From assembly GCF_029227855.1 (NCBI RefSeq), contig NZ_CP074356.1: a stretch of DNA of 64,000 nt. One strand, given 5' to 3'. Positions 8,975 to 9,675 of this stretch are shown in pieces; within the stretch, counting starts at the first letter, position 1; every line of letters starts with the position of its first letter. The DNA comes from Escherichia coli (GTDB lineage Bacteria > Pseudomonadota > Gammaproteobacteria > Enterobacterales > Enterobacteriaceae). The notes below the pieces were generated by a model. The model was not told where the DNA came from. It saw nothing but the letters and a program-made list of their open reading frames with translations, and did not search any database. Both the position numbers and the translations under genes were made by a program.

Positions 8975-9675
8975 TATAAGGCTCTCTTACCAGCCGCGCC
9001 CTAACAGGCGCACACGATCTGACATTTGCATCCAACTTCGTTACTTACGGCCCGTAAACGGGCTGCCCGGATAGGGAATCGATAACTGCTCTCCCATTTT
9101 ATCCTCTTCAAGCTGGTGCTTTATGTAATCCTGTATCTTCGCCGTGTTCTTACCCACCGTATCGACGTAGTACCCTCTGCACCAGAACTCCCTGTTCCTG
9201 TATTTGAATTTCAAATCACCAAACTGCTCGTAAAGCATCAGACTGCTTTTCCCTTTCAGATATCCCATAAAGCCGGATACGCTCATTTTGGGCGGGATCT
9301 CCACAAGCATATGGATATGATCTGCACAGCATTCAGCTTCCAGAATCCGTACACTTTTCCACTCACACAGCTTTCTCAAAATACTGCCTATTGCTCTACG
9401 CTTCTCTCTGTAGAACACCTGTCTTCGGTATTTTGGCGCAAAAACTATGTGATATTTACAGTTCCATCGGGTGTGCGCTAAGCTCTTTTCGTTCCCCATT
9501 GGGACCCCCTTTTGATTTCTTGTTTGACACTTGCAGTTGCCAGACCGCAAGGTGTTTTAACAAATCAAAAGGGGTTTTAATAACTGGCTTAAAGCTGAAA
9601 GCTTTCCGGAACCCCCAGCCTAGCTGGGGGTTTTCTGTGCACAACAAAAACCCCTAGTTTGAGGGGTTTGCTTTT
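8975..9675 (-). mobile_element. IS200-like insertion sequence (IS200/IS605 family); boundaries approximate
   Basis: About 0.7 kb between the ycgB terminator and the fadR stop; contains a 152-aa Y1 transposase and, at the transposase-proximal end, two hairpins (cccccagc-cta-gctggggg at ~9608-9626; aacccct-agtttg-aggggtt at ~9641-9660) typical of the IS200 left end. Confidence 0.6.
9041..9499 (-). CDS. tnpA: IS200-type transposase TnpA (HUH/Y1 family)
   Basis: MGNEKSLAHTRWNCKYHIVFAPKYRRQVFY...HIHMLVEIPPK (HuH motif), 152 aa from the internal ATG at 9499. Confidence 0.8.
   Translation of the reverse strand: MGNEKSLAHTRWNCKYHIVFAPKYRRQVFYREKRRAIGSILRKLCEWKSVRILEAECCADHIHMLVEIPPKMSVSGFMGYLKGKSSLMLYEQFGDLKFKYRNREFWCRGYYVDTVGKNTAKIQDYIKHQLEEDKMGEQLSIPYPGSPFTGRK

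Follow-up and report, generated by a model that had tools for sequence, protein, structure and literature searches.

The ycgB-fadR spacer of the Escherichia coli genome studied here is 761 nucleotides long, versus 51 nucleotides in K-12 AB1157 and SCU-172, and this raises the question of which element fills it, where its ends lie, whether it disturbs the two convergent host genes and why it sits exactly there. We analysed the surrounding stretch of 64,000 nucleotides (the window) and compared the locus with the available genomes of this and other species. Taken as a whole, the data are very probably best explained by a complete copy of IS200C that lies next to a terminator, is expected to be neutral to its host and appears to follow a targeting habit of its group.

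Identity of the element

The element occupies positions 8932 to 9642 of the window on the minus strand (711 bp; nucleotide 1 of the IS is position 9642 and nucleotide 711 is position 8932) and is, judged by its sequence, a complete IS200C, the E. coli member of the IS200 group within the IS200/IS605 family, with tnpA as its only gene. The initial annotation had seen an IS200-like, tnpA-only element between ycgB and fadR and was right in this core reading. Its 152 amino acid HUH/Y1 transposase with the motif HIHMLVEIPP (residues 61-70) is confirmed by matches to Pfam Y1_Tnp (PF01797; E-value 3.8e-38, 130.7 bits, cutoff 23) and to the NCBIfam equivalog NF033573 'IS200/IS605 family transposase' (transpos_IS200; 147.7 bits, cutoff 55). 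tnpA is the sole sizeable sense ORF between the defined ends, and a program-made list of ORFs contains no tnpB or iscB between 8932 and 9642; the larger element with tnpB that had been considered as an alternative is thus not what lies here. No further IS200C copies were found inside the 64-kb window.

The region is 100% identical to that of E. coli CFSAN018748 (swine, Denmark; NZ_CP028192.1), where the RefSeq gene order is ycgB, tnpA (WP_000526135.1) and fadR, and where WP_000526135.1 is labelled 'IS200/IS605-like element IS200C family transposase'. We use the name IS200C from the RefSeq/PGAP annotation of this identical record and not from an ISfinder reference sequence; the same label is found on more than 1000 RefSeq/PGAP records at 99% identity or above. 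As the IS is catalogued and the genome was already annotated, the element is already known, and the locus itself is a known one of little consequence.

Base composition varies along the window: the segment 24001-40000 has a G+C content of 0.43-0.44, compared to about 0.49-0.53 in most other bins, and may be horizontally acquired; the strongest negative GC skew of the window is in the bins of 16-32 kb.

Exact limits and the empty site

The ends of the element were set by the divergence of flanks among seven E. coli copies, together with the empty sites of SCU-172 and K-12. For this, six further E. coli copies from unrelated contexts (neighbours include Lom/tail fibre, adeD/uhpT, iraM/icd, carB and an IS4 remnant) were compared in IS orientation. 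The sequence common to the E. coli copies starts with GTGCACAGAAAACCCCCAGC and ends with ...CCGGAGGATATTTATT, corresponding to window position 9642 down to 8932; a junction ambiguity of 2-4 nucleotides (TT/TTGT) was settled using the other copies. The limits 8975-9675 of the initial annotation were wrong: they miss 43 nucleotides of the right end, including a hairpin at 8941-8959, and add 33 nucleotides of host DNA that hold the fadR terminator (9648-9669). The annotation is corrected accordingly: the hairpin that directly follows ycgB belongs to the IS, and the hairpin beside fadR is the native terminator shared by both genes.

K-12, which the initial annotation had taken to lack IS200 and to have a short interval here, does have an empty site, with the 51 nucleotides of AB1157 between the two genes, and its match to the query is confined to the fadR flank; the element is therefore not one shared with K-12-like references. 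In IS orientation, the empty site of K-12 AB1157 and SCU-172 reads GGGGTTTTTTGTT/GTTTTTACAG, with the slash marking the insertion point. Alignment to the K-12 empty site, which the initial annotation had proposed as a check, returns the limits 8932-9642 and no duplication: the occupied allele of strain DA33137 (L130) minus the IS is exactly the empty site, and there is thus no target duplication. This exact match is confined to DA33137, since the window allele differs from the empty site by one T fewer in the T-tract and by a C-to-A change at position 9656.

Anatomy of the element and its transposase

The left end starts with a tip of ten nucleotides, GTGCACAGAA (9633-9642, minus strand, IS nucleotides 1-10), that is conserved in the E. 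coli copies; related left-end tips across taxa all end in GAA(AA). By analogy to IS608, the A-run of the tip beside the foot of the adjoining hairpin is presumed to guide the choice of T-rich cleavage and target sites. This hairpin is a perfect one of 10 bp (9610-9632, minus strand, IS nucleotides 11-33; -11.7 kcal/mol, z -3.6; repeat I16, 100% complementary); it is the known bidirectional terminator of IS200 and presumably also a binding site of TnpA. Further downstream, a stem-loop in the tnpA 5'UTR (9506-9574, minus strand, IS nucleotides 69-137; -20.7 kcal/mol, z -5.3; inverted repeat I1) is predicted to bury the Shine-Dalgarno sequence. The two hairpins noticed earlier upstream of tnpA are hence real, and both lie inside the IS. 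Left end and 5'UTR together match the Rfam family RF01405 (STnc490) at 9509-9632 on the minus strand, over the full model (1-124) and with 146.1 bits (gathering cutoff 56; E-value 3.5e-31). The match is on the tnpA-sense strand and takes in the hairpin that lies before the reported start of tnpA, while STnc490/art200 is antisense to the 5'UTR according to Ellis et al. 2015 (PMC4513863); we therefore read the match as the structure of an IS200 left end and not as evidence for the strand of an sRNA.

The transposase gene tnpA extends from 9041 to 9499 on the minus strand (IS nucleotides 144-602), as defined by the ORF list, Pfam and NCBIfam, and encodes a Y1 HUH transposase of 152 amino acids that begins with MGNEKSLAHTRWNCKYHIVF. 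Read from the sequence, the HUH motif is H61-I62-H63 and the catalytic tyrosine is Tyr125, with Gln129 four residues further on; the corresponding pair in IS608 is Y127 and Q131, in line with the rule of a polar residue at position Tyr+4 (PMC6006769). Residues 5-131 align with crystallised TnpA proteins, the nearest of which are archaeal IS200-type transposases (2ec2, 4e-23), IS608 TnpA (2a6m, 4e-19) and ISDra2 TnpA (2xm3, 2e-16).

The right-end hairpin (8941-8959, minus strand, IS nucleotides 684-702; -10 kcal/mol, z -3.1) is terminator-like on both strands: the terminator scan found it followed by TTTTTCAAAT on the plus strand and by ATATTTATT on the minus strand. The latter is the right-end tail, which by copy comparison reaches to the right cleavage site (8932-8940, minus strand, IS nucleotides 703-711), and this right end is common to the copies of E. 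coli, Dickeya, Edwardsiella and Y. pestis. Hairpins of the two ends share 78% identity as a direct and not as an inverted repeat (D1), and both are preceded on the top strand by GAAAA(A). A repeat search of the element found no terminal inverted repeats; subterminal hairpins in place of such repeats are typical of the IS200/IS605 family. A promoter scan of positions 8700-9900 found no sigma-70-like promoter.

Expected consequences for fadR and ycgB

The hairpin next to the left end belongs to the host: it is the bidirectional intrinsic terminator of fadR and ycgB (hairpin 9648-9669, target region 9643-9669, minus strand), is found likewise where K-12 and SCU-172 have no insertion, and was detected on both strands by the terminator scan. 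At the empty site, the hairpin CCCCTC-GTTT-GAGGGG has a T-tract on each side and serves both convergent genes. The IS is inserted directly 3' of the fadR-sense T-tract TTTTTGTT, with its first nucleotide being the very next base, and has the orientation of fadR. Both genes are undamaged: the stop codon of ycgB (8925-8927, plus strand) lies 4 nucleotides before the right end of the IS and the stop codon of fadR (9689-9691, minus strand) lies 46 nucleotides from its left end.

The initial annotation had suggested that the insertion could affect the termination of the fadR transcript. This is unlikely, because the IS lies 3' of a complete hairpin and T-tract that remain intact. The fadR hairpin of the window folds slightly more weakly as RNA than the canonical one (-10.9 versus -14.4 kcal/mol), which is caused by the C-to-A SNP at 9656 in the loop-closing pair, and its T-tract has five instead of six T; five other IS-bearing alleles (L130-L134) keep the canonical terminator. 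ycgB, on the other hand, is parted from the shared terminator by the insertion. Transcription from ycgB instead meets the right-end hairpin followed by TTTTT, 14 nucleotides after the stop codon, and this hairpin has an RNA folding energy of -15.5 kcal/mol, versus -14.9 kcal/mol for the native terminator; it is thus a predicted replacement terminator for ycgB on the plus strand.

A model for how the copy arrived and behaves can be drawn up from known relatives. By analogy to IS608 and ISDra2, TnpA would bind the end hairpins on one DNA strand, this strand would leave as a circle, and the circle would be pasted in, with no duplication, on the 3' side of a short T-rich sequence; by analogy to IS608, the A-run would base-pair with both the T-rich left flank and the ...TATT right end. 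Once in place, ycgB transcripts would end at the right-end hairpin and TTTTT rather than at the shared terminator, the host terminator and the left-end hairpin would shield tnpA from read-through, and the tnpA ribosome-binding site would be buried in the 5'UTR stem-loop. With tnpA shielded, its ribosome-binding site buried, the fadR terminator untouched and a replacement terminator available to ycgB, the copy is expected to be near-silent and phenotypically neutral. GC skew of the plus strand is negative in all eight bins of the window, and the top strand of the IS (the minus strand) is therefore the G-rich strand; at this one locus, this is consistent with a top strand on the lagging-strand template, as in the family.

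Copy number and distribution in E. coli

The distribution of IS200C was surveyed in 5426 complete E. coli genomes. IS200C-like sequence is present at 10,730 places in 3097 of the 5426 genomes, in differing contexts and with 1288 of the places on plasmids; in 2056 genomes, a copy spans 80% or more of the query. The number of matching places per genome has a median of 1 and a maximum of 35. The genome-wide copy count that had been proposed earlier gives 31 matching places for the source genome (the CFSAN018748 match), and the expectation of 'usually few' copies fails here: 31 places are far above both the median of 1 and the published E. coli mean of 2.9 IS200 copies (PMC4513863). A group that includes swine ETEC/O139:H1 strains has IS200C expanded to roughly 19-35 places per genome; in the swine ETEC/O139:H1 relatives of the source genome, the range is 19-33. 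Multiple copies, varied locations and presence on plasmids indicate a mobile element; activity of the window copy itself is a prediction.

Probably recurrent occupation of the ycgB/fadR site

IS200 is found between ycgB and fadR in 32 of the 5426 genomes. In all six occupied alleles examined (the window and L130-L134) orientation and position are identical. Of the 711 IS positions, between 0 and 27 vary among the copies, and the junctions (8928-8934 and 9642-9650 in the window) are of two types, of which one has an additional T. At least three classes can be distinguished: the window and L130 have the identical IS sequence; L131-L133 carry a further T at the right junction and differ at 0-5 positions of the IS; L134 (ST2747) has 27 differences in 711 positions of the IS, with only 5/950 and 3/240 in its flanks. 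In its simplest reading, this suggests at least three independent insertions at one nucleotide and thus a hot-spot. The view that IS200 copies are phylogenetically informative is weakened: with 32 carriers in 5426 genomes and at least three classes of junction and sequence, presence at this site can be homoplasic. It recurs in unrelated backgrounds, and caution is needed before it is taken to mark a clone.

Gene conversion between IS copies or recombination of the flanks are alternatives to repeated insertion. A different history, in which the ancestor already carried the element at this locus and precise excision removed it from K-12 and most other strains, would profit from the fact that excision in the IS200/IS605 family is precise and leaves an empty site without a scar (family knowledge; PMC2806898). 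We consider it very improbable: the site is occupied in just 32/5426 genomes, the occupying copies vary in sequence and junction type while their flanks are near-identical, and both transposition and excision of IS200 are very rare (PMC4513863). REP-associated tyrosine transposases (RAYT) and IS200 transposases share the Y1 HUH fold and TnpA has a weak match to NCBIfam REP_Tyr_transpos, so that a domesticated RAYT could be considered, as could one half of a two-gene element of the IS605/IS608 type; the chance that either applies is minute. The REP_Tyr_transpos match (NF047646) reaches 32.2 bits and stays far below its cutoff of 80, while the IS200 equivalog passes; the element is multi-copy, variable in location, present on plasmids and not flanked by REPs; and 711 bp without a second ORF or tnpB within the ends does not fit the IS605/IS608 type. 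Neither tnpB nor a REP array was seen next to the element in the seven E. coli contexts, and we rejected both readings.

Insertion behind terminators

The position at fadR is a clean example of a terminator-adjacent niche of IS200-type elements. In seven of seven E. coli copies, the left end follows directly after a GC-rich hairpin and T-run of an upstream, co-oriented gene. To see this in a larger set, species-representative genomes were scanned for the 23-nucleotide left-end hairpin, which listed at least 120 stretches of DNA; the flank set (L004-L008 and L010-L129) has 124 unique left-end flanks among the matches listed, from many taxa. Among these matches, 121 of the 124 left-end flanks of 45 nucleotides fold at -10 kcal/mol or below (mean -18.4), versus 135 of 570 T-rich control sites from the same loci (24%; mean -7.4); for flanks on the side of the right end, the number is 8 of 50. 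The left flank ends in TT in 109 of the 124 listed copies, and the last four bases of the 124 are most often TTTT (57), TATT (18) or TGTT (12), a T-rich, degenerate target. The insertion point is 6-9 nucleotides after the last G/C pair in 94/124 copies among the matches listed; the right-end tail of the element itself has 9 nucleotides. We read this as targeting of a structure like the right end: a hairpin and T-run that resemble the element's own right end appear to be used as target as a general habit of this IS group.

Taxa among the matches listed include Y. pestis (with IS1541), Vibrio, Brenneria, Dickeya and Edwardsiella. In Y. pestis there are tandem copies of IS1541 (L075, L076, L078, L092 and L122) with the right end of one abutting the left end of the next (...GGATATTTATT/GTGCCCAG, sometimes with one extra T), a junction that resembles a circle junction or the use of a right end as target. 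The exact 23-nucleotide hairpin, AACCCCCAGCTAGGCTGGGGGTT, is also found in MAGs labelled as Bacillota, Peptococcaceae, Mailhella/Desulfovibrio (Desulfovibrionaceae), Oxalobacter, Saccharibacteria and Elusimicrobiaceae. The matches in MAG contigs (L010-L070) are often within about 100 nucleotides of contig ends; a Saccharibacteria copy with only 65% nucleotide and 71% TnpA identity still has the hairpin unchanged. Presence of the hairpin in such distant MAGs could reflect strong constraint, transfer across phyla or contamination during binning. In two cases (L016 of Pluralibacter gergoviae and L059, a Mailhella massiliensis MAG), tip and hairpin are positioned behind a host terminator with no recognisable IS200 tnpA thereafter; these may be solo left ends or carry a different cargo.

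How the niche arises can be explained in two ways. The target may be selected by its structure: a terminator hairpin and T-tract on single-stranded DNA would mimic the right end of the element (hairpin and ATATTTATT), and TnpA would recognise the target hairpin. In this specific form we regard the idea as a speculative and rather unlikely one. Alternatively, the niche may be the product of purifying selection and not of targeting: IS200C would enter any T-rich site on single-stranded DNA, and only those copies that come to lie in the dead space behind terminators would persist; this is possible, but we hold it to be less likely than not. In favour of selection, IS200 is polar inside an operon, as in hisD984 (PMC4513863), the known mechanism of the IS608 type requires just 4-5 nucleotides of target, and about a quarter of the T-rich control sites also fold well. 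Selection has more difficulty with the nucleotide-precise position relative to the T-tract (the 6-9 nucleotides after the last G/C pair in 94/124 listed copies), with the one nucleotide at fadR that is occupied by divergent IS copies, with the tandem copies that appear to use right-end hairpin and tail as target, and with the apparent lack of use of other harmless intergenic T-runs (121/124 well-folding listed flanks versus 24% of controls). If structure-selected targeting is true, insertion would always be at the same distance, directly behind the T-tract, and this would explain why IS200 is strictly intergenic and transcriptionally insulated, why the fadR terminator is a hot-spot, why tandem dimers occur and how IS200 came to be spread across phyla. 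A niche based on real targeting would also help to explain how a near-dormant transposon can be harmless yet present at 20-60 copies.

That terminators are enriched next to IS200 is already known: a 2025-26 preprint finds a terminator-like sequence upstream of and outside the element in 40.2% of 20,314 copies of the IS200 family, compared to at most 7.1% in each of the other families, and reads the upstream terminators as limiting transposase expression (10.1101/2025.07.22.666184). The geometry at nucleotide level is absent from the preprint. Literature searches on IS200/IS1541 in combination with terminators or targets returned only this statistical preprint and papers on IS200 regulation; neither nucleotide-precise targeting nor mimicry of the right end was found in the literature searched, with older IS1541/IS200 papers outside its reach. 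Odaert et al. 1998 are reported to place insertions shortly downstream of co-oriented genes. Terminator-targeting is the only part of this analysis with some residual novelty.

Comparison with known systems

The closest described system is IS200 of Salmonella enterica (Lam & Roth; Beuzon & Casadesus; PMC4513863), which likewise has a single tnpA and neither terminal inverted repeats nor target duplication. Salmonella IS200 has 707 bp, with a terminator hairpin at nucleotides 12-34 and a stem-loop at nucleotides 69-138 (PMC4513863). Left-end terminator hairpin, SD-sequestering 5'UTR stem-loop and STnc490/art200 region (146 bits to the Rfam model) are shared between the two; the E. coli variant differs from the 707 bp of the Salmonella element in having 711 bp and is labelled IS200C. 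IS1541 of Yersinia pestis/pseudotuberculosis has 87% nucleotide and 94% TnpA identity to IS200C and shares the 23-nucleotide left-end hairpin, the right end ...CCGGAGGATATTTATT and the placement behind a host hairpin and T-run; its left-end tip is GTGCCCAGAA rather than GTGCACAGAA, and its copies have multiplied strongly: at least 58 left ends, tandem dimers included, were counted in the genome scanned.

More distant are IS608 of Helicobacter pylori and ISDra2 of Deinococcus radiodurans, the mechanistic models of the family. Both have homologous TnpA proteins (4e-19 and 2e-16) and subterminal hairpins, and they transpose from the lagging-strand template by single-strand 'peel and paste' (PMC5027513, PMC2806898). 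Cleavage in IS608 is guided by the nucleotides that immediately precede each hairpin on its 5' side. Like IS200C, IS608 and ISDra2 insert 3' of a short specific sequence without duplication. Unlike IS200C, they carry tnpB, and their targets are the defined words TTAC and TTGAT with no reported need for a target hairpin; IS200C lacks tnpB, its target is T-rich but degenerate, and a host hairpin adjoins about 98% of the copies examined among the matches listed. Bacterial group IIC introns also home to sites directly behind the stem-loops of intrinsic terminators, where insertion is 'safe'; these are unrelated retroelements that consist of a ribozyme and a reverse transcriptase, and the likeness to IS200C is in the choice of site only.
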